Below, piece after piece: positions 8,189 through 36,851 of a stretch of DNA of 64,000 bases. The stretch is from Firmicutes bacterium UBA5449 (GTDB lineage Bacteria > Bacillota > SHA-98 > UBA4971). The notes below the pieces were generated by a model. That model saw only the letters and a list, made by a program, of their open reading frames with translations, was not told the DNA's origin and did not search any database. Both the position numbers and the translations under genes were made by a program. Location of the stretch: contig DIQZ01000035.1 of assembly GCA_002424305.1 (NCBI GenBank), positions 226,335 to 290,334 of the forward strand. The letters are read 5' to 3'. Within the stretch, counting starts at the first letter, position 1. Each line of letters opens with the position of its first letter.

Positions 8189-11100
8189 CTATCCATTCCT
8201 TTGCTCCTCTTTGCGGCCCATGCTGATAACGGTAACATGGCCGTTTATATCCCACTTGCCGGCATGTTCACCTGAAGGCTTGGAAAGCTCGGTCTCCCCA
8301 CCGTATATCAGCTCCTCTGAAAGGGTTTCATCCATGATATAGCCCTTGTGAAATTCACAGGCCTCCTTAACTACGCTGTCAGACCAAAAAACTGTACCTA
8401 TCCTATCCTCGACATTGAAGTCGGCTTCTTTACGCATTGTTTGGATCTTGTTTACCATTTCTCTTGCCAAGCCTTCCATAATCAAATCATGGGAAAGAGC
8501 GGTATTGAGGGCGCACACAACATCTCCTTCACTCTCAATAGCAAAGCCCTCTTGTTCCACGGTTTCGATAGCCAGCTCCTCAGCAAGGACAGTAACGGTA
8601 TCGTCTCCGCAAGGCACCTTGATACTTCCCTCATCTTCAAGCATAGCTACGACTTGTTCAGGATTAAGACTTTCTATCCCTGCTACCACATCTTTCATTA
8701 GGCGACCGTATTTTGGTCCTAAAAGATCAAATCTGGGTTTCACTCTGTGAGCCACAAACTCACCGACATCCTCTGCAATTCGAATAGCCTTCACATTCAG
8801 CTCCTCTTTGATAATATGCTCCAGCGCAGCCACTGCCTTTTTATCAGCAGGATCCGTGAGGACGACCAGCATCTCACTGAGAGGCTGCCTTATCTTGATG
8901 CTCACCTTATTTCTGGCAGCTCTTCCCAGGGTCACCAGCTTCCTTGCTACAGCCATATTCCGTTCCAGTTCAATATTGATTAACTCTTCGTTGCAAACCG
9001 GATATGAGCAAAGATGAACACTTTCAGGGAGGTCGTCACGTCTTTCAGCTTCGAGATTCCTGTATATCTCCTCTGCCATAAAAGGCGTAAAAGGTGCCAG
9101 CAACTTTGCAAGCCCTACAAGTATCTCATGCAACGTAAGATACGCAGCAATCTTGTCCTGTGTCATCTCAGCGCCCCAGTAACGGCGTCTGGATCTTCTC
9201 ACGTACCAGTTGCTCAAGTCATCTACGAACTCTTCAATAGCTCTGGCTGCAGGTGTAATGCTGTAGGCCTCAAGCTCAGTTTGCACAGCTCTCACAACGC
9301 TATTGAAGCGGGAAATAATCCATTTGTCCAAAATCCCTCTTTCTTCAGGCTGTAGTTCATAGTCATCCGGGTCAAACTCGTCCACGTTCGCATAGAGAAC
9401 ATAGAAAGAATATACATTCCATAGAGTAGACAAAAATCTGCGTTGTGATTCATTTACTGCCTCAAGGTAGAAACGCGTGGGATTCCACGGAGGATTCACA
9501 GTGTACAGGTACCAACGAAATGCGTCAGCCCCATATGTGTTGAACACCTCCCACGTATCCACCACATTCCCCTTGCTCTTACTCATCTTCAAACCTTCGG
9601 CATCAAGTATATGCCCTAACACAAGAACGTTCTTGTACGGGGGCTCATCAAAAAGAAGGGTTGAAATAACGAGCTGCGTATAGAACCATCCGCGGGTTTG
9701 ATCTATTGCTTCACTGATAAAATCCGCCGGGAAATTAGTCTTAAACTTGTCTTCGTTTTCAAATGGATAATGCCACTGGGCAAAAGGCATGGATCCTGAA
9801 TCAAACCAAGCATCTATGACCTCCTTGATCCTATACATAGAACCACCGCACTCAGGGCATCTGAGAACAGCCTGGTCTATATAAGGTCGGTGAAGCTCAA
9901 GTCTTTGAGGAAGCTCCTGAGCCATTTCCTTAAGCTCATCGACACTGCCCACACAATGATTTTTGCCGCATTTCTCACATATCCATATGGGAAGTGGTGT
10001 ACCCCAATAACGCTCTCTGCTGACTGCCCAGTCAATCACGTTTTCCAGGAAGTTTCCCATTCGTCCGTCTTTGATATACTGCGGGTACCACGAAACCGCC
10101 TGGTTATTTCGTAAGAGAGCCTCCTTAACGGCAGTAGTCTTCACAAACCATGAAGTCCGTGCGTAATAGAGGAGCGGAGTATCACATCTCCAACAGAAAG
10201 GATATGTGTGCGCGTGCTGTTCACTCCTGTAGAGTCGCCCACGAGAGTTAAGCTCTTCTATAATTAAAGGATCCGCTTCCTTAACAAACATGCCTTTCCA
10301 TGGTGTTACTTCTACAACAAATTTCCCTTCTTCATCTACCAGCTGCACCACGGGCAGGCCATGTTGGGAAGATGCGCTCATGTCATCTTCACCGAACGCA
10401 GGAGCCAGGTGAACTATGCCTGTGCCGTCGTCAAGAGTGACAAAGTCTGCGCTTACCACATACCAGGCTTTCTTCTCAGGCTCTTCGAACTCAAACAGAG
10501 GTTCATACTCCAATCCGGTCAAGGACTTGCCTGTAAACTCATCTATGACTTCATAGGCTTCATCTTCAAGAAGTGCAGAATGCAGCAGTTCTTTTGCGAG
10601 AATTAGCTTATGACCTGTCTCTGTCAGTCTGATTTTCGCGTAAGTAGCATCCTCTGCCACTGCCAGAGCTACGTTAGACGGAAGAGTCCACGGGGTTGTA
10701 GTCCATACAAGGAACGCTGTGTCTTCCTCATCCTTTAGCTCGAATTTCACGTACACGGACGGATCTTCAACCTCGTGATAGCCTTGAGCAACCTCATGGC
10801 TGGATAAGGCGGTCCCACACCTTGGACAGTACGGCACTACCTTATGTCCCTTATACAGCAGGCCTTTATCCCAAATCTTTCGGAGAGCCCACCACACAGA
10901 CTCAATGTAATAATTCTCATAAGTCACGTAGGCTTTGTCCAAGTCGACCCAAAATCCTACGCGTTCTGTCATACGCTCCCATTCTCTTTTGTACCTGAAC
11001 ACGCTTTGTTTACACTTCTCGATAAAGTTTTCGACACCGTACTCCTCTATCTGAGGCTTCCCACTTATGCCTAATTGCTTTTCTATCTCAAGTTCAACAG

Positions 11101-11371
11101 GAAGCCCGTGGGTGTCCCAGCCACCTTTCCTTGGCACATGATATCCACACATTGTCCGGTATCTGGGAATAAGGTCCTTCATTACACGAGTGAGCACATG
11201 CCCGGGATGAGGCATAGCGTTTGCAGTAGGCGGACCTTCATAAAATACGAACTTAGGTCCGCCTTCAGTTTTCTTAATCGTTTTCTTAAAAATTTCTTGC
11301 TCTTTCCAGAACTCAAGGATTTCCTCTTCCATTCGAGGCATATTCCTGGATGGGTCAACTTGTTTGAACAT
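8189..11371 (-). CDS. ileS: Isoleucine--tRNA ligase (long form)
   Basis: HIGH motif (PPTANAMPHPGHV), KMSKS motif (KMSKSKGN) and zinc-finger C-terminus. 1060 aa. RBS GAGGAGG. Confidence 0.95.
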   Translation of the reverse strand: MFKQVDPSRNMPRMEEEILEFWKEQEIFKKTIKKTEGGPKFVFYEGPPTANAMPHPGHVLTRVMKDLIPRYRTMCGYHVPRKGGWDTHGLPVELEIEKQLGISGKPQIEEYGVENFIEKCKQSVFRYKREWERMTERVGFWVDLDKAYVTYENYYIESVWWALRKIWDKGLLYKGHKVVPYCPRCGTALSSHEVAQGYHEVEDPSVYVKFELKDEEDTAFLVWTTTPWTLPSNVALAVAEDATYAKIRLTETGHKLILAKELLHSALLEDEAYEVIDEFTGKSLTGLEYEPLFEFEEPEKKAWYVVSADFVTLDDGTGIVHLAPAFGEDDMSASSQHGLPVVQLVDEEGKFVVEVTPWKGMFVKEADPLIIEELNSRGRLYRSEQHAHTYPFCWRCDTPLLYYARTSWFVKTTAVKEALLRNNQAVSWYPQYIKDGRMGNFLENVIDWAVSRERYWGTPLPIWICEKCGKNHCVGSVDELKEMAQELPQRLELHRPYIDQAVLRCPECGGSMYRIKEVIDAWFDSGSMPFAQWHYPFENEDKFKTNFPADFISEAIDQTRGWFYTQLVISTLLFDEPPYKNVLVLGHILDAEGLKMSKSKGNVVDTWEVFNTYGADAFRWYLYTVNPPWNPTRFYLEAVNESQRRFLSTLWNVYSFYVLYANVDEFDPDDYELQPEERGILDKWIISRFNSVVRAVQTELEAYSITPAARAIEEFVDDLSNWYVRRSRRRYWGAEMTQDKIAAYLTLHEILVGLAKLLAPFTPFMAEEIYRNLEAERRDDLPESVHLCSYPVCNEELINIELERNMAVARKLVTLGRAARNKVSIKIRQPLSEMLVVLTDPADKKAVAALEHIIKEELNVKAIRIAEDVGEFVAHRVKPRFDLLGPKYGRLMKDVVAGIESLNPEQVVAMLEDEGSIKVPCGDDTVTVLAEELAIETVEQEGFAIESEGDVVCALNTALSHDLIMEGLAREMVNKIQTMRKEADFNVEDRIGTVFWSDSVVKEACEFHKGYIMDETLSEELIYGGETELSKPSGEHAGKWDINGHVTVISMGRKEEQRNG

Positions 11372-11384
11372 GGCACATCCTCCT

Positions 11385-11700
11385 CAAACTACACCAATAA
11401 TAACAATCTCCCGTCCCCTGAAATCGGGACGGGAGACAATACTCTCGCGGTACCACCCAAATTGGCTGCCTGTGGCAGCCCGCTCATAGGCACAACAAAC
11501 CCAATCCACATCATACCAGGCTGGGAATGCCATACCTCTGTATCGGGAGGACCCGGCCGCGTCTACTCTCTTAGCCTGCCACAAAGGCGGGCCTTGGATT
11601 TCGCGTGGCCACTCCAGGGGGATCTTGGGTGCTCCTAAGCTCCGACTTACACCTGCCTCGGTTCGCTGTAACTCCCGGATGCAACCTACTCGTCCCTATC
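11385..11700 (-). promoter_or_regulatory. T-box riboswitch leader of ileS, with intrinsic terminator
   Basis: The minus-strand sense reads AAUUUGGGUGGUACCGCGAGAG, matching the T-box consensus. Immediately after it comes the hairpin CUCCCGUCCC-GAUUUCAG-GGGACGGGAG plus a U-rich tail. The leader sits upstream of ileS, which is classically T-box regulated in Firmicutes. Confidence 0.75.
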
Positions 11701-11759
11701 ATCGTCTCGATAACATATCTAATTTACCACATTAAGATGTGTAGCATTCTCGCTTACGC

Positions 11760-11975
11760 ATTCAGTTTAGCATAGCGTTCGAGCCCGGTCAACGGGCAAC
11801 ACATGGTCCATAAGTTCTGCCCGGGGTGGCCGGTGCTTGTGTAAGGGGGGCGCCCGGAATTTGGCAAGTATATGGACGGGCCAAATTCGATCGAGGCGCG
11901 CCGCAAGTGCGCCGTCCCCCGAACGCAACACGGGACATGCCAGGCAGGAAAAGTGACCCAAATCAGTAGAACACG
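11760..11975 (-). ncRNA. Candidate structured non-coding RNA of unknown class. It is GC-rich (about 60 percent versus about 48 percent background) and contains several perfect hairpins.
   Basis: Stems seen directly: GAATTTGGC...GCCAAATTC (9 bp), GCCCG-GTCAA-CGGGC, GGCGC...GCGCC and GTCCC...GGGAC. The overlapping ORFs in this region are short and lie in conflicting frames. Strand and boundaries are uncertain. Confidence 0.3.
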
Positions 11976-11976
11976 C

Positions 11977-12162
11977 TTAGTCTCCTGAGCCTTTTCTAAA
12001 AGGCGCCCTCTTAATAAATGGAAGTTTCGGGGTTTCATGTATTATGACCTCTGCCGGACCGGGCATCAACTGTTGTTGGCACTTCTCGCATTTTTCCGCT
12101 GAATCCGGATTCACAGCCCCACAATTGGGACATTGAATCACAAGAGACACCCCCTTCAACAC
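11977..12162 (-). CDS. Small zinc-ribbon protein (CPNCG...CEKC)
   Basis: Two CxxC pairs. The RBS AAGGGGG precedes an in-frame GTG. The gene follows a hairpin after the upstream gene. Confidence 0.4.
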   Translation of the reverse strand: MLKGVSLVIQCPNCGAVNPDSAEKCEKCQQQLMPGPAEVIIHETPKLPFIKRAPFRKGSGD

Positions 12163-12253
12163 TTCTGATTTCTACATCAGACAGTATATGCCTAAGGAGT
12201 ATCTTGTGACACCCGGAACCTAACCCGGGACTTCTCATACCGAACTTGTCCCA

Positions 12254-13009
12254 CTATTTCATAGCGCTTACCTGAATCATAGTAATGATTTTGGAGTCGT
12301 CAGCGCTGCCACTATAGGTTACCATTTCCGATGCGTCCAGCTTCACAATGCTCCCAAGAGCCAGATAGAACGTACCCGTAGAGACATACGTATAGTCTTG
12401 CTTGTTATCCTGACCCTTACCGACAATTTCGTAACCAATCTTGTATGCGTTGGCTGTCCCCCAAGGTTCCACTCCAAGAAACCGATATGCACGTTTCTCA
12501 AACGTCTGATCCCCGGTGGTTTTTGAGAAAAACGCATCATTCATAGTCCACGTATCCCCTGGTTCAACAGGATATTCAGGTAGGAGCGCCTGAGCCAGCC
12601 ACATAGTCTCAATACGCCGCCCGTCCCAAGGTTTGAGGCCTTTTACCCCGAGAATACGGCCTGTTTTATCAGTAGTCAAGTAGTATCCTGAAGGCTCCAA
12701 CCTCCTAATTTCTCCACCTACAGGAGTAACAGTGCCTACACACACAACAGCCCGTAAGGCCTTACCGTTTTCCACAGGCGTTTTCTGCACCTTGAAATCT
12801 TCTCTATAAAGATTTGTTATTCTTTGTCCGTCGAGGTATGAAGTTTCACTTATGAGAACCTGATACGTGTTGGTCTCATCTGATGAGGTATCAAACTCCA
12901 AAACGGTCTTAGGCGAATTCTCAGCAGAAACACTGCACCGTAAGATCAGTAAGTCTACTATGGTAATACACAAGACCAAGGACAAGCCCACAACGAACAT
13001 AGAATTCAT
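12254..13009 (-). CDS. Hypothetical exported protein
   Basis: Signal/TM MNSMFVVGLSLVLCITIVDLLIL followed by a soluble domain. No family was recognised. Confidence 0.55.
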   Translation of the reverse strand: MNSMFVVGLSLVLCITIVDLLILRCSVSAENSPKTVLEFDTSSDETNTYQVLISETSYLDGQRITNLYREDFKVQKTPVENGKALRAVVCVGTVTPVGGEIRRLEPSGYYLTTDKTGRILGVKGLKPWDGRRIETMWLAQALLPEYPVEPGDTWTMNDAFFSKTTGDQTFEKRAYRFLGVEPWGTANAYKIGYEIVGKGQDNKQDYTYVSTGTFYLALGSIVKLDASEMVTYSGSADDSKIITMIQVSAMK

Positions 13010-13261
13010 CCCTGCCCTCGTCTTATTTCGCCTTGATTGAGTGTTCCTGATATACGTGATAAGATCCACAAAGATGCCCCCTTTTATCGGGTGGCCCCAT
13101 TTCAGGTTTCAAGAAGCGAAATAAAACCTCAAGTAAACCCTTATGTGACCATATGCAGGATCCTCATTCTCGTACCCTTTATGCCTATAGATTATACAGT
13201 ACTTTCAGCAAAAATGAAGGTATTCCTACTTATCATAGGTGGCAGGTTCGGAGACTAATAT

Positions 13262-13367: not shown

Positions 13368-15092
13368 TTAGACTCGGGATCGGGGAACATAGTGCGTGTG
13401 AAGAAGCTCATGAGACTTCTCCCCCAAAGGCTCCCCAAGAAACTCTTTGTATAGTTCTTGGACTTGGGGGTTCAGGTGAGATTTGCGAAGCGGCATATTC
13501 CTGTCTTCTTCATATATTGCGCTAATTCGCTTCAGTCTTGTCTCTCGGTCAGTTGGTATAGGCTGTCCGCCTCCACCGATACACCCGCCGGGACATGCCA
13601 TTATTTCAACAAAGTGATAATCAGCATCACCCTTAGAAATCCTTTCCAGAAGTTGCCTTGCATTCTTCAGTCCATTGGTAACTGCGACGTTAACCACAGT
13701 GCCATTTATGTCTACTTGTGCTTCCTTGCAGCCTTCAATACCCCTGACATCCTCAAAATCAATGTTCTCTAACTCACTGTCAGTGACTACTTCGTACACA
13801 GTCCTTAGGGCAGCTTCCATCACACCGCCTGACGCCCCGAAAATAACGGCTGCACCTGTCGACATACCAAGAGGATCATCGTAATCTTCAGCAGGCAACG
13901 ATGGGAAGTCAATCCCCGCCTCTCGTATCATCCGTCCAAGTTCTCTTGTTGTAAGAACAGCGTCTATATCAGGATAGCCACTGGATGTCATCTCCGGTCT
14001 CTTGGCTTCAAACTTCTTTGCAGTGCACGGCATTATGGATACAACGTAGATATCTTTCGGATCAATACCGGCTTTTTCTGCATAATAAGTCTTGGCAAGA
14101 GCGCCAAACATCTGCTGAGGTGACTTACATGTAGATACATGTGGGAGTAGGTCGGGAAAGAAATGCTCAATAAACTTAATCCAGCCCGGACTGCATGAAG
14201 TAATAAGAGGCAATACCCCTCCGGCCTTCAACCGCTCCAGCAGTTCATATCCTTCCTCCATAATAGTCAGGTCAGCCGTGAAGTCAGTATCAAAAACCTT
14301 ATCGAACCCAAGCCTTCTCAAGGCTGCCACCATTTGGCCTGTGACTCTCGAGCCGGCAGGCATACCCAGCTCTTCACCGATACTTGCTCTTACCGCAGGC
14401 GCAGTTTGAACCACCACATGCTTAGTGGGATCTGCTAACGCAGCCCAGACATATTCAGTGGCATCACTTTCTGTCAAAGCGCCTACAGGACATGCAAGAA
14501 CACACTGACCGCACATAGTGCAAACTGCTTCCATGAGATCATCAGCAAACGCAGGGCCGACCATTGTGTCAAACCCTCTGTCATTGGGCGCCAGCGCGCA
14601 CACTGATTGCGTATCCTGGCAAACACTTACGCATCGCCTGCAGAGGATACATTTGTTAGGATCTCTGACAATCGAGGGGCTTGAAGAATCTACGGGAAAC
14701 TTGTGTTTCTCTCCCTCATACTCGATCTCACGTATGTTGAACCTATCTGCAAGCGCCTGAAGCTCGCAGTTTCCACTTCGTTCGCAAGTCAGACACTCAT
14801 AAGGATGGTTAGATATGATAAGCTCCAGTACAGTCCTTCTGGCTTCACGCACAGCAGGAGTATTAGTCCTAACTACCATCCCGTCTGAGGCCGGAGCAAC
14901 ACATGCAGCTTGCAGAGATTTGGCTCCTTCCACTTCGACTACGCAAACCCGGCAGACTCCCACAACGTTAGTGTCTTTCAAGTAACAGAGAGTAGGTATA
15001 TCTACCCCGGCTGCATGCGCCGCATCAAGAATCGTTGAACCGGCGGGCACTTGAACCTTATTGCCATCTATAGTTACAGTAAGCATATCCAT
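13368..15092 (-). CDS. hydA: [FeFe] hydrogenase catalytic subunit HydA (group A, multi-cluster form)
   Basis: N-terminal 2Fe-2S ferredoxin fold, additional FeS cysteine clusters, and H-cluster motifs TSCSPGW, MPCTAKKFE and EIMACPGGCIGGGGQP. Confidence 0.9.
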   Translation of the reverse strand: MDMLTVTIDGNKVQVPAGSTILDAAHAAGVDIPTLCYLKDTNVVGVCRVCVVEVEGAKSLQAACVAPASDGMVVRTNTPAVREARRTVLELIISNHPYECLTCERSGNCELQALADRFNIREIEYEGEKHKFPVDSSSPSIVRDPNKCILCRRCVSVCQDTQSVCALAPNDRGFDTMVGPAFADDLMEAVCTMCGQCVLACPVGALTESDATEYVWAALADPTKHVVVQTAPAVRASIGEELGMPAGSRVTGQMVAALRRLGFDKVFDTDFTADLTIMEEGYELLERLKAGGVLPLITSCSPGWIKFIEHFFPDLLPHVSTCKSPQQMFGALAKTYYAEKAGIDPKDIYVVSIMPCTAKKFEAKRPEMTSSGYPDIDAVLTTRELGRMIREAGIDFPSLPAEDYDDPLGMSTGAAVIFGASGGVMEAALRTVYEVVTDSELENIDFEDVRGIEGCKEAQVDINGTVVNVAVTNGLKNARQLLERISKGDADYHFVEIMACPGGCIGGGGQPIPTDRETRLKRISAIYEEDRNMPLRKSHLNPQVQELYKEFLGEPLGEKSHELLHTHYVPRSRV

Positions 15093-15112
15093 CCTGGTTC
15101 ACGCTCCATTCT

Positions 15113-18100
15113 TTAGTCCTTCACGTCGCACCGGAGACATCGCGAAGCTTCAAAAATTGCTTGAGGCTCACTGAACTTATCAACTACCTCATTGAAGTTG
15201 CCATGCCTCTGGTTTACCGGTAGCACACCTGGATGTTGCCTTGGCATCTGCTCCTCATGGATTTCTCCCACCTGTTCCCGACCAAGGTCAGGACTTACAG
15301 GGATCTCCCCGGTTCCGCCAAGGTACTTGCCAATTTCTATTGCAGCGCGTCTGCCGTCTGCAATCGCCTGAATTACAGTATCAGGCCCGTGCACACAGTC
15401 ACCGCCTGCAAATACGCCAGGTTCACCGGTGGTGAGAGTCCTTGTGTCTGTAACTATCGTAGACCATCTTGTAGTCTCAATCCCGGATCTGCCCGGTAGG
15501 AGAGACATATCCGGCCTCTGGCTTATGGCGGAAATAACCATATCTACATCAACAACAAAATTCGACGCTTCTACCTCGACAGGACGCCTCCGCCCGCTGC
15601 GGTCAAACTCACCTAAGGACATTCTGACACATTCCATGTTAGTGAGCTTGCCGTCTCTGCCTATCATTTTTGCCGGCACTGTCAGGAAGTGGATTTTGAT
15701 TCCTTCGCGTTCCGCCTCACTTATCTCCCCTTTGTCAGCAGGCATGTCTTCTCGCTGACGTCTGTATATAACGTGAACTTCACCCGAGCCAAGACGAAGA
15801 GCGGTTCTGGCGGCATCTATAGCAGCGTTACCTCCGCCTATGACTGCAACTTTCTTGCCAACCTTCGGGTTTTTGCCGAGGCTGACGTCTTGGAGAAACT
15901 CAACAGCGCCCACCACACCACACAAGTCCTCCCCCGGCACGCCAAGCTTCTGGCTTACGTTGGCTCCGACAGCAATGAGAATGGCTTTGTATCCGTCAGT
16001 CCTCAAGTCATCAATGGTAACATCTTTACCTACCGCAACCCCTGTACGTATCCGGACCCCGGTTCTCTCAATATAGTCGATTTCCGCACGTAGAATATCT
16101 TTGGGCAGTCTATATTCTGGGATTCCGATTAACAACATGCCACCCGGTTCCGGTAAGGCTTCAAATACTGTGACCTCATATCCCATCTGAGCCAAATAGT
16201 AAGCTGCGGTAAGGCCACAAGGACCTGAACCCACAATTGCCACCTTCGCATTTTTTATGACTTCAGGCTTCTCAACCGGGATTGGATTCAGGAGTTCATA
16301 GTCGGCAGCAAACCTCTTCAACTCGCATATAGCAAGGGCCTGATCAAGTTGAGCTCTTCTGCATTTACCTTCACACGGATGGGTGCAAACCCTACCACAC
16401 ACCGCAGGAAACGGATTCTTCTCTTTTATGAGCTTTACTGCCTCCTGATATCTCTTTTGTGTTATCAGGTTGATGTACCTCGGCACATCAACATCAGCAG
16501 GACATGCATTCTGGCAAGGGGACTCAAACAGAGTAGCGCATACAGAGGCCGGACACTTCCTGTCCCTGATATGAGCCTCGTACTCGTCCCTAAAATAGCG
16601 TATAGTGGTGAGGACAGGAGTCGGAGCTGTCTGACCTAAGCCACAGAGAGCCGTCTCTTTGATCCATGTTCCAAGCTTAATCAGACGCTCAATATCGCCT
16701 TCACGCCCCTCGCCCCGGGTGATTCTGGTTAGAATCTCCAGCATCCTCTTTGTGCCTATCCGACACGGGGCACACTTACCACAGGATTCATCCTGGGTAA
16801 ACTCTAAGAAGAACCTGGCAAGGTCAACCATACATGTGTCTTCATCCATGACAACGAGACCGCCGGACCCCATGATCGTACCGAGCTTTGTAAGGGACTC
16901 ATAATCCATGGGTGTGTTAAGAAATTCCGCAGGAACACATCCGCCTGAAGGTCCTCCGGTCTGCGCAGCCTTATACTTCTTGCCATCGGGGATTCCTCCG
17001 CCGATGTCGAAGACTACTTCTCCCAGAGGCGTCCCCATAGGGACTTCGACAAGGCCTGTATTGTTTATTTTGCCTGCAAGAGCAAATACTTTTGTGCCCT
17101 TACTCTTCTCAGTTCCGATGCCCGCAAACCACTCCGGGCCTCTTAGAATTATCTGGGGAATATTAGCGTAGGTCTCTACGTTGTTGAGAAGGGTCGGTCT
17201 CCCCCACAGCCCTTTGCTGGCAGGAAAAGGAGGCCTTGGCCTCGGCTCTCCGCGTCTTCCCTCCACTGAGGCAAGGAGAGCTGTCTCCTCACCGCATACA
17301 AAGGCACCTGCTCCAACCCTTATATCCATGTTAAACTCAAAGCCTTTGCCAAGAATATCCTTACCAAGAAGCCCATACTCTCTGGCCTGGCTTATAGCGT
17401 GGGTAAGATGAGCGACTGCCAAGGGATATTCAGCCCTGACATAGACGTACCCTTGATTTGCTCCGACAGTATACCCTGCAATTGCCATGGCCTCAATTAT
17501 GGCATGAGGATCTCCTTCGATTATGCTTCTGTCCATGAACGCGCCGGGGTCACCCTCGTCAGCATTACAAACCACATACTTTTTGTCTGACTTCGCTCGC
17601 CTGGTGAAGTCCCACTTCAAGCCGGTGGGGAACCCTGCTCCCCCTCTACCGCGAAGGCCTGCACTCTTTAGAACATTTATTACATCCTCCGGTGTCATTT
17701 CAGTGACGACCTTAGCAAGAGCTGCATACCCGTCTTCAGCTATGTACTCTTCAATATTCAAAGGGTCAATCTTACCCGTGTTGCGAAGAGCAACTCTAAC
17801 CTGTCTGCTGAAGAAGGTCATATCGGAATACGTAGGAACTTTTTGCCTTGTATCCGGAGTCACGTAGAGAAGCCTGTCAACAATTCTACCTTTAAGGAGG
17901 TGTTCCGTAACTATTGAACGGGCATCTTCCGGTTTTAGATTTCTGTAGAGAACCCCTTCCGGGTAGACAATAATGATAGGACCCAGCTCGCAAGGACCCA
18001 TGCACCCTGTAACAATAATTTTGATTTCGTCGGTGAGACCTTGCTTGGCGATTTCATCAGCAAGAGCCTGTTCAACATCTTTGCATCCTGACGAGGCGCA

Positions 18101-18145
18101 ACCTGCCCCGCCACAAACGAGAACATGTGTCCGATAGGCACCCAT
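15113..18145 (-). CDS. hydB: HydB-like NADH/FMN subunit (NuoF family) with an N-terminal NuoE-like 2Fe-2S domain. The C-terminus is fused to a GltD/NfnB-like FAD/NADPH oxidoreductase module.
   Basis: GLRGRGGAGFPTGLKW (NuoF SLBB/FMN site) and a CxxCxxC 4Fe-4S motif. The C-terminal half has CxxxCxxxCP...CGRVCTHPCEGKC plus two Rossmann motifs (VAIVGSGPCGLTAA and VAVIGGGNAAIDAA), typical of glutamate synthase small-chain homologs. The likely start is ATG at 18145 (RBS AAGGAGG). The ORF track extends to 18187. Confidence 0.85.
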   Translation of the reverse strand: MGAYRTHVLVCGGAGCASSGCKDVEQALADEIAKQGLTDEIKIIVTGCMGPCELGPIIIVYPEGVLYRNLKPEDARSIVTEHLLKGRIVDRLLYVTPDTRQKVPTYSDMTFFSRQVRVALRNTGKIDPLNIEEYIAEDGYAALAKVVTEMTPEDVINVLKSAGLRGRGGAGFPTGLKWDFTRRAKSDKKYVVCNADEGDPGAFMDRSIIEGDPHAIIEAMAIAGYTVGANQGYVYVRAEYPLAVAHLTHAISQAREYGLLGKDILGKGFEFNMDIRVGAGAFVCGEETALLASVEGRRGEPRPRPPFPASKGLWGRPTLLNNVETYANIPQIILRGPEWFAGIGTEKSKGTKVFALAGKINNTGLVEVPMGTPLGEVVFDIGGGIPDGKKYKAAQTGGPSGGCVPAEFLNTPMDYESLTKLGTIMGSGGLVVMDEDTCMVDLARFFLEFTQDESCGKCAPCRIGTKRMLEILTRITRGEGREGDIERLIKLGTWIKETALCGLGQTAPTPVLTTIRYFRDEYEAHIRDRKCPASVCATLFESPCQNACPADVDVPRYINLITQKRYQEAVKLIKEKNPFPAVCGRVCTHPCEGKCRRAQLDQALAICELKRFAADYELLNPIPVEKPEVIKNAKVAIVGSGPCGLTAAYYLAQMGYEVTVFEALPEPGGMLLIGIPEYRLPKDILRAEIDYIERTGVRIRTGVAVGKDVTIDDLRTDGYKAILIAVGANVSQKLGVPGEDLCGVVGAVEFLQDVSLGKNPKVGKKVAVIGGGNAAIDAARTALRLGSGEVHVIYRRQREDMPADKGEISEAEREGIKIHFLTVPAKMIGRDGKLTNMECVRMSLGEFDRSGRRRPVEVEASNFVVDVDMVISAISQRPDMSLLPGRSGIETTRWSTIVTDTRTLTTGEPGVFAGGDCVHGPDTVIQAIADGRRAAIEIGKYLGGTGEIPVSPDLGREQVGEIHEEQMPRQHPGVLPVNQRHGNFNEVVDKFSEPQAIFEASRCLRCDVKD

Positions 18146-18222
18146 GCTACCAAGCCTCCTTATCCTGAAACAACCACACAAATTCAAATCGGCGTTTCAA
18201 GCTCATGCATAAGATCACATCA

Positions 18223-18717
18223 TCACTCATACTTGTCCAAGATAACCTTTATCTGATCTGATTTAACCCTTGCATATATGTCCTCATTGACTCTGACAAC
18301 AGGTCCAAGACCGCAAGCCCCCATACACCTGACAATCTCCACTGAAAATCTCCCGTCATCGGTAGTGTCTTCCCCCTTGACCCCCAGGTCTTCTCCGAGT
18401 TTCTCCATGATGGCGTCAACACCCTTGACATAACATGCCGTTCCCTTGCAAACGCTGATAACGTTCCTCCCCTTAGGCTTTAACGAGAACAACGCGTAAA
18501 ATGTAACAACACTGTAAACCTCACTAAGAGGGATATCCAGTCCCTCAGCAATCATGACCTGGATTTCTCTGGGAAGATAACCTACTACCTGCTGGGCTTC
18601 ATGCAAGACTTGAATCAAGACACCGGATTTACCTTCATAATAGTCGATTATCTCCCTGACCTTCTCTCTCTGTTCATCGGTAATTTCGCCAATGCATGTA
18701 CACGTCTCACAAGCCAT
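18223..18717 (-). CDS. hydC: HydC, NuoE-like thioredoxin-fold [2Fe-2S] subunit
   Basis: CKGTACYVKG...CMGACGLGPV motifs. 164 aa. RBS AGGAGGAATAGG. Confidence 0.85.
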   Translation of the reverse strand: MACETCTCIGEITDEQREKVREIIDYYEGKSGVLIQVLHEAQQVVGYLPREIQVMIAEGLDIPLSEVYSVVTFYALFSLKPKGRNVISVCKGTACYVKGVDAIMEKLGEDLGVKGEDTTDDGRFSVEIVRCMGACGLGPVVRVNEDIYARVKSDQIKVILDKYE

Positions 18718-18792
18718 ATACCTATTCCTCCTTACCGATCCTCAACCGTAAGTGGGGGCTGCATTCACTACCGAAAACTATAACCTATGTAT

Positions 18793-18808
18793 TGCAACAA
18801 TCATGCCA
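18793..18808 (-). promoter_or_regulatory. Sigma-54 (-24/-12) promoter TGGCATGATTGTTGCA upstream of hydC
   Basis: The reverse complement of 18793-18808 reads TGGCAT-N5-TTGCA, with exact GG-N10-GC spacing. It lies about 75 nt upstream of the hydC ATG. The adjacent gene encodes a sigma-54 activator. Confidence 0.6.
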
Positions 18809-19127
18809 CTCTACATGGCATTAGGAATATTGTCGTCAAACCCTTGTGAAAGACGTCACAAAGTCAATTATCATCCATGCAAAAGAGACAAACTCAACCT
18901 CAGGTTAATGCACTATTGCATTATTCTTGTAGAATTTTCCACCATATGCGCAAGTTTACTACTTTTGGGAGAACTCTATTCCATATTGAATTTAGATGCT
19001 TATTGTTTGTTTTGGCTTGAAGCTGGAAAAGGAGGTTGTCTTGGTCCGTTTACATCTTGACGACATAACACAGAGCCCACGAAAACGGCATAGAATGCAA
19101 GGTTGCATTGCTTAATGCCAACGCGCA

Positions 19128-20456
19128 TTAAGTGGTATACTTTTTAATCTTCCTAACAACAGTGGATTGATTGACTCCGAGGGCTTCCGCCATGTCATAG
19201 GTGGTTTCATGCTTCTCTTGCGCGTGCTTGATTATCTGCCTCTCAACCTCTTCCACAGCCTCGCGCAGAGGCATTATGCCTTTCACTATTACGTTGAGAG
19301 AACCTGTGTCAGCCTCACCTTTGACATATGCCGGCAGATCCTCTACAGAGATCTCCTCTCCTTCTAACGTAACTATAAGTCGTTCCATCAGATTTTCCAA
19401 TTCTCGAACGTTTCCGGGCCAAGAGTACCGTGTCAGGCTCTCTCTTGCTTCCCTGGAAATCGTTTTGTTGTAGCCGTGGGCGCTATTGTGTTTTGCCAGG
19501 AAGTGATATATGAGGGGAATAACGTCATCCCGTCTGTTTCTCAGTGGTGGGATGACTATTGGTACTACGTTTAATCTGTAGAAGAGGTCAGCACGGAACT
19601 CGCCTTTTTCCACCATTCCTGCCAGATCTCTGTTGGTGGCTGCAATTATTCTGATATCAACCTCAATAGGCTGAATCCCGCCAACCCGCGTCAGACGACG
19701 TTCCTGAATCACTTGAAGAAGCTTTACTTGAAGATCAAGAGGAAGATCAGATATCTCATCAAGGAAGAGAGTTCCCAAAGACGCAATCTCTATCATCCCG
19801 GGTTTGCCATCCCGCTTTGCGCCGGTGAACGCGCCTGCTTCGTAACCGAACAGCTCAGATTCAAGAAGGTTTTGAGGAATAGCCCCGCAGTTTATAGTGA
19901 TAAAGGGAGCGTTCCGGCGAAGACTTGCATTATGAATAAATCGCGCGACAACCTCCTTACCCACACCTGATTCACCTAGAATAAGAACGGTACTGGTCAC
20001 CTGCGCTACCTTACCCGCCAAGTGCAACACTCGTCCCATTTCTACGCTGTAGGCGATGATAGCATTGGAAGGAGATTCATGCATCTTGCCATCCCCCGCA
20101 GATTCCCAGGACAGGAGTTCTCGAGCAGTTCTCGTAATACAGTCCTTGCTCACCCCGGGAAGAGCGCGAGCAAAAGCCTGATCAAGATCGCGTGAAACAG
20201 GCCCTCCTGAAGCCAATGCCCAAAGGACTGCCTTCACATTATCTGAAAGCCTCAAAGCGACCTCAGGACATACCCTAAAACACTCTCCGCATCCATCACA
20301 GCGGGACGGGTCTATGATAATCTTGTCTCTTACGAAAGATATGGCATCAACAAGGCATCTTGGAATACAAGAACCACACCTTGTACACTTGTTGTCGTCG
20401 ACAAAGACAAATCCGGGCAATTGGCTCCCTCCCCCACAAGCGGCGTTATACAGCAC
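19128..20456 (-). CDS. Sigma-54-dependent transcriptional activator with an N-terminal 2x[4Fe-4S] ferredoxin domain
   Basis: CTRCGSCIPRC and CDGCGECFRVCP ferredoxin motifs. AAA+ domain with GESGVGKE Walker A and the GAFTGA sigma-54 contact motif. C-terminal Fis-type HTH. Confidence 0.85.
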   Translation of the reverse strand: MLYNAACGGGSQLPGFVFVDDNKCTRCGSCIPRCLVDAISFVRDKIIIDPSRCDGCGECFRVCPEVALRLSDNVKAVLWALASGGPVSRDLDQAFARALPGVSKDCITRTARELLSWESAGDGKMHESPSNAIIAYSVEMGRVLHLAGKVAQVTSTVLILGESGVGKEVVARFIHNASLRRNAPFITINCGAIPQNLLESELFGYEAGAFTGAKRDGKPGMIEIASLGTLFLDEISDLPLDLQVKLLQVIQERRLTRVGGIQPIEVDIRIIAATNRDLAGMVEKGEFRADLFYRLNVVPIVIPPLRNRRDDVIPLIYHFLAKHNSAHGYNKTISREARESLTRYSWPGNVRELENLMERLIVTLEGEEISVEDLPAYVKGEADTGSLNVIVKGIMPLREAVEEVERQIIKHAQEKHETTYDMAEALGVNQSTVVRKIKKYTT

Positions 20457-35879: not shown

Positions 35880-36851
35880 TTAATCATGAGACCCCGGATG
35901 CATAATGTCCAGAAGCACCTCAAGGCCTTGAACCAACCTGGGACCGGGACGGGTTAGGATATCAGGATTTACTCGGTGAATCCTCCGTGTCTTGCAGGCA
36001 GAAATCCCTTTCCAAGCAGATCTTCCAAGCACATCATCCTTATCTGTCCATACCGTAATTATCACATCCGGATCCCTTTCAATGACTACCTCTACACTGA
36101 ATTCAGGCCATTCCAAACCTGCGTCACCTGCGATGTTTTCCCCGCCTGCAACCTTAATAAGCTCATCAATAAAAGTACCGGGTCCCGCAGTCATTAAGGG
36201 GTCATCCCATATCTCCACAAATACTCGTGGTCTGGCTTGTTTCGTCACGGCCAAAGCTGCCTTTGATCGCACACCTTGAATCTCATTGCTGAGGCTCTGC
36301 ACAAGCAATTCCGCTGCGTCCTCTGTTCCGGTTGCCTTACCTACCAAAACAATGCTATCTAAGACATCTCTGAGTGTCTTCGGATCCAGTGCCAGAACAG
36401 GTATGCCAAGATTAGACAGGGTTTCAATAACAGGCAACTGCATGCTTCCAACTGCGACCACGAGATCCGGAGATATCTCCATTATCTTCTCAATATTCAT
36501 CTCTACTTGGCCGACCTTAGGTTTTGACTTCGCCTCCTTGGGGTAATCACATGCCTCTGTAACACCGACAACTCTGTCACCTAGACCCAGAGCGAACAGA
36601 ATCTCCGTGTTACTTGGCGCAATAGACACGATGGTCTCAATGGGAAGTTCCAATTTCACCTCCCTGCCCAAGGCATCTATGACTGTGACTTCACCCTCTG
36701 TGACATTTGCCGAGACCCCCATGGCCAAGATGCAAAATGCAGCAATGATAATGCCAAAAATCATGACTTGTGAGAGCGCAGTCCGCATCCGAAAACCTAA
36801 GTGGCTCACATATTGCTTACGACCCACACTACGACACTGCTTACGATCCAC
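35880..36851 (-). CDS. btuF: Periplasmic binding protein, BtuF/FhuD class (cobalamin/siderophore)
   Basis: Signal peptide (MRTALSQVMIFGIIIAAFCILAMG if the start is at 36788) and a class III binding-protein fold. The track start at 36851 is a GTG inside a 21-nt tandem repeat, so the true start is uncertain. Confidence 0.7.
   Translation of the reverse strand: MDRKQCRSVGRKQYVSHLGFRMRTALSQVMIFGIIIAAFCILAMGVSANVTEGEVTVIDALGREVKLELPIETIVSIAPSNTEILFALGLGDRVVGVTEACDYPKEAKSKPKVGQVEMNIEKIMEISPDLVVAVGSMQLPVIETLSNLGIPVLALDPKTLRDVLDSIVLVGKATGTEDAAELLVQSLSNEIQGVRSKAALAVTKQARPRVFVEIWDDPLMTAGPGTFIDELIKVAGGENIAGDAGLEWPEFSVEVVIERDPDVIITVWTDKDDVLGRSAWKGISACKTRRIHRVNPDILTRPGPRLVQGLEVLLDIMHPGSHD

Follow-up and report, generated by a model that had tools for sequence, protein, structure and literature searches.

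A GltD/NfnB-type cassette replaces the ferredoxin-like B3/B4 domain in the HydB subunit of a trimeric [FeFe] hydrogenase and may link H2 to both NAD(H) and NADP(H)

We analyzed a stretch of 64,000 nucleotides from the genome of Firmicutes bacterium UBA5449 (contig DIQZ01000035.1; the whole stretch is called the window below), in which three adjacent genes, hydC, hydB and hydA, encode a trimeric [FeFe] hydrogenase of the bifurcating type. The HydB subunit of this enzyme is a fusion protein. Its NuoF-like core, very similar to that of the bifurcating hydrogenases, is followed by a cassette of about 470 amino acids (aa) related to GltD and NfnB, and this cassette replaces the C-terminal two-cluster ferredoxin-like domain, called B3/B4, rather than being added on. 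On this basis we tentatively favour the view that the complex would be a ferredoxin-independent hydrogenase coupling H2 to both NAD(H) and NADP(H). It is also possible, and we put this forward with more reserve, that the fused NuoF-GltD subunit represents an unrecognised branch of the Bfu family, with NADP(H), a two-electron carrier bound at a flavin module of the protein itself, instead of ferredoxin on the low-potential branch. Together with HydA, it would form an H2-driven transhydrogenase that shares out the electrons of H2 between NAD+ and NADP+.

The three genes are co-directional, and we found them at the positions that an initial annotation, made from the sequence alone, had given them:

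18223..18717, minus strand: hydC, 164 aa, BfuC/NuoE-like protein with the thioredoxin-like [2Fe-2S] site C1 (Pfam 2Fe-2S_thioredx, PF01257, 3.7e-50; NCBIfam HoxE/NuoE models).
15113..18145 (stop codon included), minus strand: hydB, 1010 aa, NuoF/BfuB core fused to a GltD-type NADPH/FAD cassette.
13368..15092, minus strand: hydA, 574 aa, M3-type [FeFe] hydrogenase catalytic subunit.

The mechanically predicted open reading frame (ORF) of hydB starts with a TTG at 18187 and encodes 1024 aa (18187-15113). We dropped this start in favour of the ATG at 18145 because the latter is preceded by a strong ribosome-binding site, AAGGAGG, and because the resulting product of 1010 aa has the modal length of the homologues, which is also the length proposed by gene callers in independent assemblies. 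With these gene calls, the Pfam and NCBIfam domains support the layout that had been proposed, i.e. that of a trimeric enzyme of the bifurcating type assigned to group A3 by the rule of HydDB.

In Pfam terms, HydB comprises from N- to C-terminus 2Fe-2S_thioredx (residues 19-95 in the numbering of the 1024-aa ORF), Complex1_51K (1e-47), SLBB, NADH_4Fe-4S (9e-34), Fer4_20 (2e-26) and Pyr_redox_2 (1e-37). The corresponding parts of the protein, including the sites for flavin mononucleotide (FMN) and flavin adenine dinucleotide (FAD), are the following:

HydB 1-100, 17846..18145, minus strand: N-terminal thioredoxin-like [2Fe-2S] domain, site B5, with Cys11, Cys16, Cys48 and Cys52 (PF01257, NCBIfam 2Fe-2S ferredoxin models).
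HydB 117-528, 16562..17797, minus strand: FMN/NAD(H) Rossmann-like domain, SLBB domain and four-helix bundle with the [4Fe-4S] cluster B1 (Complex1_51K, SLBB, NADH_4Fe-4S).
16538..16573, minus strand: Zn-type hinge metal site B2, with His525, Cys531 and Cys536 as well as Cys438 (nt 16832-16834), matching the Zn ligands of Thermococcus sibiricus NfnB.
HydB 542-1010, 15116..16522, minus strand: GltD/NfnB-type cassette with two [4Fe-4S] clusters (Cys544, 548, 583, 587, 591, 595, 1003 and 1006), an FAD fold and an NADPH fold (Fer4_20, Pyr_redox_2).
HydB 980-1010, 15116..15208, minus strand: permuted segment 'NFNEV...EASRCLRC', aligning to residues 15-43 of NfnB (4ylf_B), N-terminal in NfnB and GltD, and giving the CxxC of the distal cluster.

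The first half of the protein, residues 1-541, is that of a bifurcating B subunit. It is 63% identical to HydB of Acetobacterium woodii (7q4v_B, 828 bits) and scores equally high with the NiFe-HydB of Acetomicrobium mobile (7t2r_B, 831 bits), followed by StnB (8oh5_B, 709 bits); the NCBIfam model nuoF_fam covers residues 140-540 with 508 bits. In a Foldseek search, BfuB chains occupied ranks 1-14 with target-normalised TM-scores of 0.81-0.96. The cofactor ligands are conserved as well. The four cysteines of site B5 (Cys11, 16, 48 and 52) are invariant in 118 homologues, and the B1 ligands Cys455, 458, 461 and 501 are also invariant among homologues. The B2 residues C438, H525, C531 and C536, invariant in 44 homologues, are equivalent to C437, H524, C529 and C534 of T. 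sibiricus NfnB. The histidine of this hinge is found in virtually all Bfu B subunits and not in other HydB homologues (PMC12018979).

This resemblance ends just after the hinge. The BfuB chains of known structure have 584-599 residues, but all alignments to them stop around residue 541-544, before their B3/B4 domain, and no CX2CX2CX3CP motif, which characterizes this ferredoxin-like domain, occurs in HydB after Cys536. Indeed, only eight conserved cysteines follow Cys536 (544, 548, 583, 587, 591, 595, 1003 and 1006), and there are therefore exactly enough of them for the two [4Fe-4S] clusters of the Fer4_20 domain. The domain swap thus begins immediately after site B2. In the AlphaFold2 model of HydB (pLDDT 86.4, pTM 0.78), the confidence dips to 60-64 at residues 531-550, which correspond to the hinge and the junction. 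No chain of the PDB spans both halves of HydB by sequence, and the best one by fold reaches a query-normalised TM-score of 0.52. Altogether, the features of a Bfu core in HydB and HydC, namely B5, FMN with B1, the B2 hinge and C1, are all present, and the B3/B4 domain is the one that is missing. The initial annotation had pictured a transhydrogenase-type module welded to a hydrogenase; this picture has to be abandoned, since the alignments ending at 541-544 show a replacement instead.

The second half fully deserves its GltD/NfnB label. A domain search had been named as one way to overturn this assignment, which concerned an extra part of some 450 aa in a 1010-aa HydB. In this search, the C-terminal half did prove GltD/NfnB-like, with Fer4_20, Pyr_redox_2 and the NCBIfam models PRK12771 (516 bits) and PRK12814 (478 bits) over residues 511-1023 of the mechanical 1024-aa ORF. 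The motifs that had been pointed out are also there, with the cluster motif CGRVCTHPCEGKC at residues 583-595 and the two Rossmann motifs, GSGPCG and GGGNAA, at 638-644 and 769-775 in the 1010-aa numbering. The closest solved relatives of residues 542-1010 are NfnA from Caldicellulosiruptor saccharolyticus (9bov_A, 433 bits), NfnA from T. sibiricus (9n5u_A, 418 bits) and StnC from Sporomusa ovata (8oh5_C, 366 bits); NfnB (4ylf_B, 349 bits), NfnL (5jca_L, 335 bits) and GltD from Escherichia coli (244 bits) score lower. Furthermore, the cassette aligns contiguously and end to end with residues 102-568 of 9bov_A and 102-569 of 8oh5_C. The likeness to the Sporomusa transhydrogenase StnABC, which had been proposed for the whole set of modules, thus holds for the cassette, nearest to those of the Stn/NfnABC enzymes, but does not extend to a complete StnABC, since a StnC-like NuoG/FdhF scaffold is lacking.

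A further trait shared with these enzymes lies in the order of the cassette. Because the last 30 residues of HydB align to the N-terminus of NfnB, the cassette is circularly permuted with respect to NfnB and GltD, exactly as in StnC and NfnA. When the last 40 residues were put before residue 542, the Fer4_20 match, at first limited to profile positions 31-108 with 77.9 bits, grew to positions 2-108 with 110.2 bits. Cys1003 and Cys1006, carried by this segment, are invariant among homologues, and by homology the ligands of the distal cluster would be these two residues plus Cys544 and Cys548.

The second Rossmann motif reads GGGNAAIDAAR...YRRQREDMPA, and a conservation of 90% or more is seen for the pattern GGGNxAxDxAR...YRRxxxxMPA. 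StnC, both NfnA proteins and Thermotoga maritima NfnB, for which the use of NADPH is experimental (PMC7483475, PMC10482914), carry this motif at the aligned positions. As the motif is common to four enzymes known to use NADPH, the NADP(H) specificity of the cassette is a well-founded inference from its sequence.

The third subunit, HydA, has all the domains of a catalytic subunit: Fer2_4, NADH-G_4Fe-4S_3, a Fer4 dicluster, Fe_hyd_lg_C (3e-105) and Fe_hyd_SSU (7e-27), which correspond to a [2Fe-2S] cluster, a His-ligated [4Fe-4S] cluster, two [4Fe-4S] clusters, the H-cluster domain and a small-subunit-like tail. It is recognized by the NCBIfam model 'NADH-dependent [FeFe] hydrogenase, group A6' with 942 bits for a cut-off of 765, and by A. 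woodii HydA1 (7q4v_A) with 725 bits. The N-terminal accessory clusters are represented by the motif HPYECLTCERSGNC. In the H-cluster domain, L2 is MPCTAKKFE and L3 is EIMACPGGCIGGGGQP, in agreement with the consensus sequences MPCxxKxxE and ExMxCxxGCxxGGGQP. The L1 motif (residues ~297-303) reads TSCSPGW, a serine replacing the second cysteine of the textbook TSCCPGW (consensus TSCCPxW). One could see there the mark of an inactive or sensory hydrogenase. We ruled this out, since A. woodii HydA1, which is active, also has TSCSPGW, as do 54 of the 59 HydA sequences from related loci, beside fused as well as canonical HydB; the substitution is thus a trait of the clade and not a defect.

The fusion is not peculiar to the source genome, but belongs to a large and old family. 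The identical 1010-aa protein occurs on 6 contigs, and its 90% cluster has 70 members; two contigs from different metagenome assemblies (ERZ922851 and ERZ795074), one of them named as a fermentation metagenome, show the same order of an ABC transporter, an Fe-S sigma-54 activator, hydC, hydB and hydA. The initial annotation had asked whether an independent assembly would reveal a break between the NuoF and GltD parts, and the protein is uninterrupted there. A search of a large protein collection listed at least 120 clusters (90% identity level) at 59-89% identity, of which 114 have a length of 1000-1046 aa; those examined among the latter have the same domain set. In a library clustered at 50% identity, at least 8 deep clusters (35-57% identity) display the complete fused architecture. 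Cultured carriers include Thermanaeromonas toyohensis, Moorella sp. Hama-1, Lucifera butyrica, Pelotomaculum terephthalicicum and Thermovenabulum.

The search for the same fusion in other genomes, which had also been suggested, was performed on GTDB with one genome per species and a profile of the junction only (HydB residues 436-700), a segment with a mean column identity of 77%. All 80 species loci retained, from more than 15 phyla and including one Thermoplasmatales archaeon, carry the whole junction in a single reading frame; the best match across it is from Thermovenabulum (73% identity). A neighbour-joining tree places the NuoF halves of 73 fused proteins and of one unfused protein in one clade, and nine canonical HydB proteins encoded next door in another. 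Since the fused NuoF halves group together, the tree points to one old fusion that would have spread later, although it is indicative only, its sample having been picked by similarity to the junction.

Some relatives depart from the common architecture. Locus L042 encodes at 11072-12688 a HydB without GltD cassette whose NuoF half is nested in the fused clade (69% identity to the fused HydB of L002), with hydA directly after it; the same locus also holds a complete fused operon, and a secondary loss of the cassette may be the origin of the unfused protein. The proteins P0173 and P0184 (also P0178, P0196, P0201 and P0244), of about 650 aa, combine NADH_4Fe-4S, Fer4_20 and Pyr_redox_2 without FMN domain. 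They consist of the four-helix-bundle/B1 part of NuoF joined to the same cassette, and may be relevant to the origin of the fusion. Lastly, P0151 (1130 aa), a distant relative of fused HydB in which NADH_4Fe-4S was found and Complex1_51K was not at a cut-off of 1e-8, has an extra Fer4_7 dicluster domain after the GltD cassette and may, judging from its domains, be a variant with both an NADP(H) site and a ferredoxin-like site.

The genes surrounding fused hydB tell more about its use. In the related loci, hydC is found upstream of it in 62 out of 63 cases. Among the 66 loci with enough downstream sequence, hydA comes directly after fused hydB in 48, a second and canonical hydC-hydB pair stands before a single hydA in 3 (L012, L016 and L036), and a NuoG-like gene without H-domain follows in 10. 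The unusual arrangements examined include:

L012 4299-12675, L016 298-8714 and L036 835-9354: hydC, fused hydB, hydC, canonical hydB, hydA.
L047 8700-11459 and L078 8798-11485: formate-dehydrogenase-like molybdopterin proteins paired with fused HydB and hydC.
L060 8861-12654: NuoG-like gene, with a [NiFe] hydrogenase large subunit two ORFs later.
L031 8721-11548: small NuoG-like protein and HdrA/MvhD-like protein.
L037 3697-5999: NuoG-like protein and Glu_synthase-domain protein, in the Thermoplasmatales archaeon.

The first of these arrangements suggests alternative or mixed complexes built on one catalytic subunit. In five other loci (L002, L003, L008, L018 and L028), a complete canonical hydCBA operon adjoins the fused one. 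Given these varied partners and the five loci with both operons, the fused subunit is a reusable module of the Bfu family that is not redundant with the canonical ferredoxin-linked module.

What could such an enzyme do? In Bfu enzymes, a mid-potential donor feeds electrons via the A-subunit clusters and B1 to FMN, where NAD+ is reduced, and a low-potential branch leads via the mobile C1 domain to B3/B4 and then to ferredoxin (PMC12018979). Ferredoxin docks between the C-terminal domain of BfuC and the B3/B4 domain, as seen in T. sibiricus NfnABC, the one Bfu complex captured in its ferredoxin-bound form, and mutation of B4 lowers the bifurcating activity from 17.2 to 0.76 U/mg (PMC12018979). 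All HydB proteins characterised as bifurcating have kept the B3/B4 cysteines, and the domain swings on the Zn hinge (PMC9499530). We propose that hydCBA encodes a HydABC-like trimer of the Bfu type in which NADP(H) would take the place of ferredoxin. Electrons from the H-cluster would pass through the HydA clusters and B1 to FMN; there, one branch would reduce NAD+, and the other would run from C1 through the two cassette clusters to FAD and NADP+, instead of the canonical route from C1 through B3/B4 to ferredoxin. The net reaction would be 2 H2 + NAD+ + NADP+ <-> NADH + NADPH + 2 H+, without ferredoxin. As other partners of the fused subunit are formate-dehydrogenase-like, [NiFe]-hydrogenase-like or HdrA/MvhD-like, formate and further donors could be used on the same principle, in a range of more than 15 phyla. 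The initial annotation had considered a link of H2 to the NADH and NADPH pools, plus ferredoxin. The coupling to the two nucleotides is what we favour on sequence grounds too, and ferredoxin is the weakest part of that proposal, because the domain that serves as docking site in the ferredoxin-bound Bfu complex has been replaced.

Physiological potentials leave room for such a coupling, with E' of about -280 mV for NAD and -380 mV for NADP and E0' of -414 mV for H2 (Table 1 of PMC9304861). Our Nernst estimates indicate that NADH alone can evolve H2 only up to about 3 Pa, that NADH and NADPH together can evolve it up to about 150 Pa, and that H2 alone can hold NADP reduced at -380 mV only above about 7 kPa. 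An NAD-driven formation of NADPH would thus be feasible because H2 at about 0.15-7 kPa lies between the E' values of NAD and NADP: in this range, the exergonic reduction of NAD+ would drive the endergonic reduction of NADP+. In the reverse direction, NADPH could help to push NADH-derived electrons onto protons. Such a coupling would make physiological sense for acetogens, which need NADPH, as well as for syntrophs, which have to dispose of reducing equivalents.

Several points nevertheless weigh against this proposal. Substrates, coupling and direction are all deduced from sequence, no enzymology or structure having been found for any member of the family. The path from C1 to the cassette is assumed by analogy with the transfer from C1 to B3/B4, and whether the FMN site takes NAD or NADP cannot be read from the sequence. 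Moreover, the E0' values of NAD and NADP are identical (-320 mV), and tight coupling is thus not thermodynamically required in standard conditions. The GltD-like subunit of NfnSL, which is homologous to the cassette, receives ferredoxin at its distal cluster. Finally, Greening et al. (2024) propose ferredoxin as the partner of this very domain of HydB (PMC11216029).

The equal potentials lead to the alternative that survives best, which we consider unlikely but worth taking seriously, namely that the enzyme does not bifurcate at all. It would then be a dual-cofactor hydrogenase with independent diaphorase sites, exchanging electrons between H2 and either NAD(H) at FMN or NADP(H) at FAD, which requires no coupling. 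What marks out non-bifurcating HydB proteins is that they have lost the C-terminal clusters (PMC7311640, summarised in PMC9499530), and the FAD of StnC is itself non-bifurcating and simply feeds the cluster chain (PMC10482914). On the other hand, the other features specific to bifurcation have been kept and are invariant, i.e. the B5 domain, the histidine and cysteines of the hinge, and HydC with C1. The NuoF half is nearest to bifurcating enzymes, as its identity to A. woodii HydB illustrates, and the point of attachment of the cassette is precisely the mobile hinge, from which the gated low-potential branch normally departs.

It is still less probable, in our opinion, that the enzyme links four substrates, H2, NAD(H), NADP(H) and ferredoxin, the last one docking either on the distal cassette cluster, in the manner of NfnSL, or in between HydC and the cassette. 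Such a site is conceivable in view of the homology with NfnB/NfnL, whose distal [4Fe-4S] cluster is the exit to ferredoxin. The arginine that contacts FAD (R201 in NfnB, R239 in StnC) is also kept, as Arg679 in GIPEYRLP, and the distant variant P0151 carries a Fer4_7 dicluster domain behind the cassette. For the archaeal hybrid enzymes, the partner of the domain was described as 'likely ferredoxin' (PMC11216029). However, the only ferredoxin site observed experimentally in a Bfu enzyme needs the B3/B4 domain that HydB has lost, and the same cassette, arginine included, does not bifurcate in StnC (PMC10482914). Besides, the hydCBA operon and its neighbours contain no NfnA/NfnS-like partner (FNR/PyrK-like, with [2Fe-2S] and FAD), nor is a ferredoxin gene found within or adjoining the operon; the co-occurrence of fused and canonical modules suggests a division of labour rather than an all-in-one enzyme.

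One could also imagine that the cassette is an adaptor to a further partner enzyme, for example a glutamate-synthase-like FMN subunit, in the sense of group A2 of HydDB. GltD originated as the subunit through which electrons enter glutamate synthase, this enzyme is a possible recipient of electrons from A2 according to HydDB (PMC5037454), and the archaeal locus L037 does encode a Glu_synthase-domain protein after fused hydB and a NuoG-like gene. We nonetheless regard this as very improbable, as neither a gltB-like gene nor any other candidate partner is present near the operon in the window or in the 48 hydC-hydB-hydA loci, and the NADPH-binding motif is fully conserved. As for an artefact of assembly or sequencing, such as a stop or a frameshift lost between a nuoF-like and a gltD-like gene, it is ruled out for all practical purposes by the identical protein and operon in independent metagenome assemblies, by the 114 homologues of full length and by the well-conserved junction, in one frame in every retained species locus.

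The comparison with known systems gives the enzyme a separate place. The HydABC enzymes from A. woodii (7q4v), Thermoanaerobacter kivui (8a6t) and T. maritima (7p5h), classified as A3 in HydDB and as FeFe-Bfu, have the same three genes and the same B5, FMN, B1, hinge and C1 sites, but their HydB carries the B3/B4 ferredoxin branch where the cassette, with its two [4Fe-4S] clusters, FAD and NADPH site, is found here. The Stn/NfnABC enzymes from S. ovata (8oh5), C. saccharolyticus (9bov) and T. sibiricus (9n5u) share with it the BfuBC-type core as well as the boundaries and the permutation of the cassette. In these, however, the cassette is inserted in a NuoG/FdhF-like A subunit devoid of catalytic metal site, where it serves as mid-potential input, and the B subunit keeps B3/B4; here, it has taken the position of B3/B4 on the B subunit, and a genuine hydrogenase with its H-cluster domain serves as A subunit. 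Because B3/B4 is absent and the cassette is not in the A subunit, the enzyme is not a member of either characterised subtype. In the same way, NfnAB/NfnSL from T. maritima (4ylf) and Pyrococcus furiosus (5jca) have the NfnB/NfnL fold, the two [4Fe-4S] clusters, FAD and the NADPH motif in common with the cassette, but differ by their NfnA/NfnS partner, lacking here, and by the CxxC helix, which has moved here from the N- to the C-terminus.

We take the non-bifurcating HydB family to be defined by the absence of both the N-terminal [2Fe-2S] domain and the C-terminal clusters, a definition that HydB does not fit since only B3/B4 is missing. Syntrophomonas wolfei Hyd1ABC and Syntrophus aciditrophicus HydAB also lack the B3/B4 clusters and are independent of ferredoxin (PMC7311640). 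Their HydB, however, is devoid of two Fe-S centres of the bifurcating type and, judging from PMC12018979, of the hinge histidine, whereas the N-terminal [2Fe-2S] domain and this histidine are both kept here, and a complete flavin module has come in addition. More generally, it is the beta subunit that differs in non-bifurcating enzymes (PMC7311640), the C-terminal cysteines being conserved in bifurcating ones (PMC9499530).

In HydDB, a hydA neighbour with a NuoF domain defines A3, and one with GltA/GltD but without NuoF defines the putative 'glutamate synthase-linked' group A2 (PMC5037454). The latter likewise associates a GltD-like NAD(P)H/FAD module with a group A [FeFe] hydrogenase, but as a separate neighbour without NuoF, whereas GltD is here fused to NuoF and accompanied by the NuoE-like HydC. 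The fused enzyme, in which Complex1_51K, NADH_4Fe-4S and nuoF_fam all attest the NuoF domain, is filed as A3 because the A2 rule excludes NuoF. The very wording of A2, 'GltD ... but not NuoF', shows that neighbours with both domains were encountered and filed as A3. In archaea, a 'glutamate synthase (GltA) domain' has been reported for the HydB diaphorase of group F hybrid [FeFe]/[NiFe] complexes (PMC11216029), and the Thermoplasmatales locus L037 is among our fused-HydB loci; these complexes differ by their partners, a HydA-HyhS fusion, HyhL and HydD, they have been modelled only, and the domain was assigned to ferredoxin and not to NADP(H). The fusion has thus already been noticed in passing, through the A3 filing and through this remark by Greening et al. 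In the open-access literature, including the Bfu survey (PMC9304861), PMC7311640 and the Stn papers (PMC7483475, PMC10482914), we found no account of the bacterial fused enzyme or of its loss of B3/B4. The initial annotation knew of no characterisation of such a fusion, and we found no biochemical or structural one in the open-access literature either; subscription journals are mostly outside this search, so that a report may exist.

The usual annotation of a trimeric [FeFe] hydrogenase is that of a bifurcating enzyme dependent on NAD and ferredoxin (A3 of HydDB), and models of acetogens, syntrophs and fermenters rest on that annotation. If the proposed coupling is true, a large subset of them, in Moorella, Thermanaeromonas, Pelotomaculum and Thermovenabulum as well as in many genomes of Bacillota, Thermodesulfobacteriota, Spirochaetota, Planctomycetota, Chloroflexota and other groups, would connect H2 with the NADH and NADPH pools and do without ferredoxin, and predictions of ATP yields, H2 thresholds and routes of NADPH supply would change. 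The family would also offer a natural experiment on the disputed Bfu mechanism, with the flavobicluster core kept and a low-potential branch ending in a flavin and a hydride acceptor instead of the one-electron carrier ferredoxin. In biocatalysis, the regeneration of NADPH, or of NADH and NADPH, from H2 by one soluble complex could be useful.

The region upstream of hydC provides indications about the regulation of the operon:

18793..18808, minus strand: sigma-54-type promoter candidate TGGCATGATTGTTGCA, about 76 nt upstream of the hydC ATG, with one mismatch to TGGCAC-N5-TTGCW.
19128..20456, minus strand: gene for a sigma-54 enhancer-binding protein with an N-terminal 2x[4Fe-4S] domain (Fer4 dicluster, Sigma54_activat, AAA_lid_14, HTH_50).

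No sigma-70-like site was found on the hydC strand of this intergenic region, which extends from 18718 to 19127 and contains three TGCA-rich palindromes (TAATGCA-N4-TGCATTA, AATGCAA-CC-TTGCATT and TTAATGC-N5-GCATTAA). These palindromes are candidate binding sites for the activator. An Fe-S sigma-54 activator gene is also located upstream of hydC in L001 and L009 and in the independent assemblies L081 and L082. Judging from these motifs, hydCBA is probably transcribed from the sigma-54 promoter under the control of the Fe-S enhancer-binding protein, a probable redox-sensing activator that may respond to redox state or to H2. A second sigma-54-like site, TGGCATTATCATTGCT, occurs elsewhere in the window at 36741-36756 (minus strand), at the 5' end of genes for a periplasmic-binding-protein/FecCD/ABC transporter (35880-33914). 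It falls inside the start of a mechanically predicted ORF whose true start codon may be further downstream.

The rest of the window, with ileS, spo0A, ypeB/sleB, spoIID, feoAB, fumarase, opp and dnaE genes, is the ordinary chromosome of a spore-forming Bacillota bacterium. As already stated in the initial annotation, it contains no hydE, hydF or hydG maturase gene among its ORFs of at least 120 aa that lie outside longer ORFs, to which one ORF of 94 aa was added. Two ORFs without Pfam match lie directly downstream of hydA on the minus strand, one of 94 aa (11754-12038) and one of 271 aa (12254-13069). The longer one is also called as a gene, with 251 aa, in the independent assembly L081.

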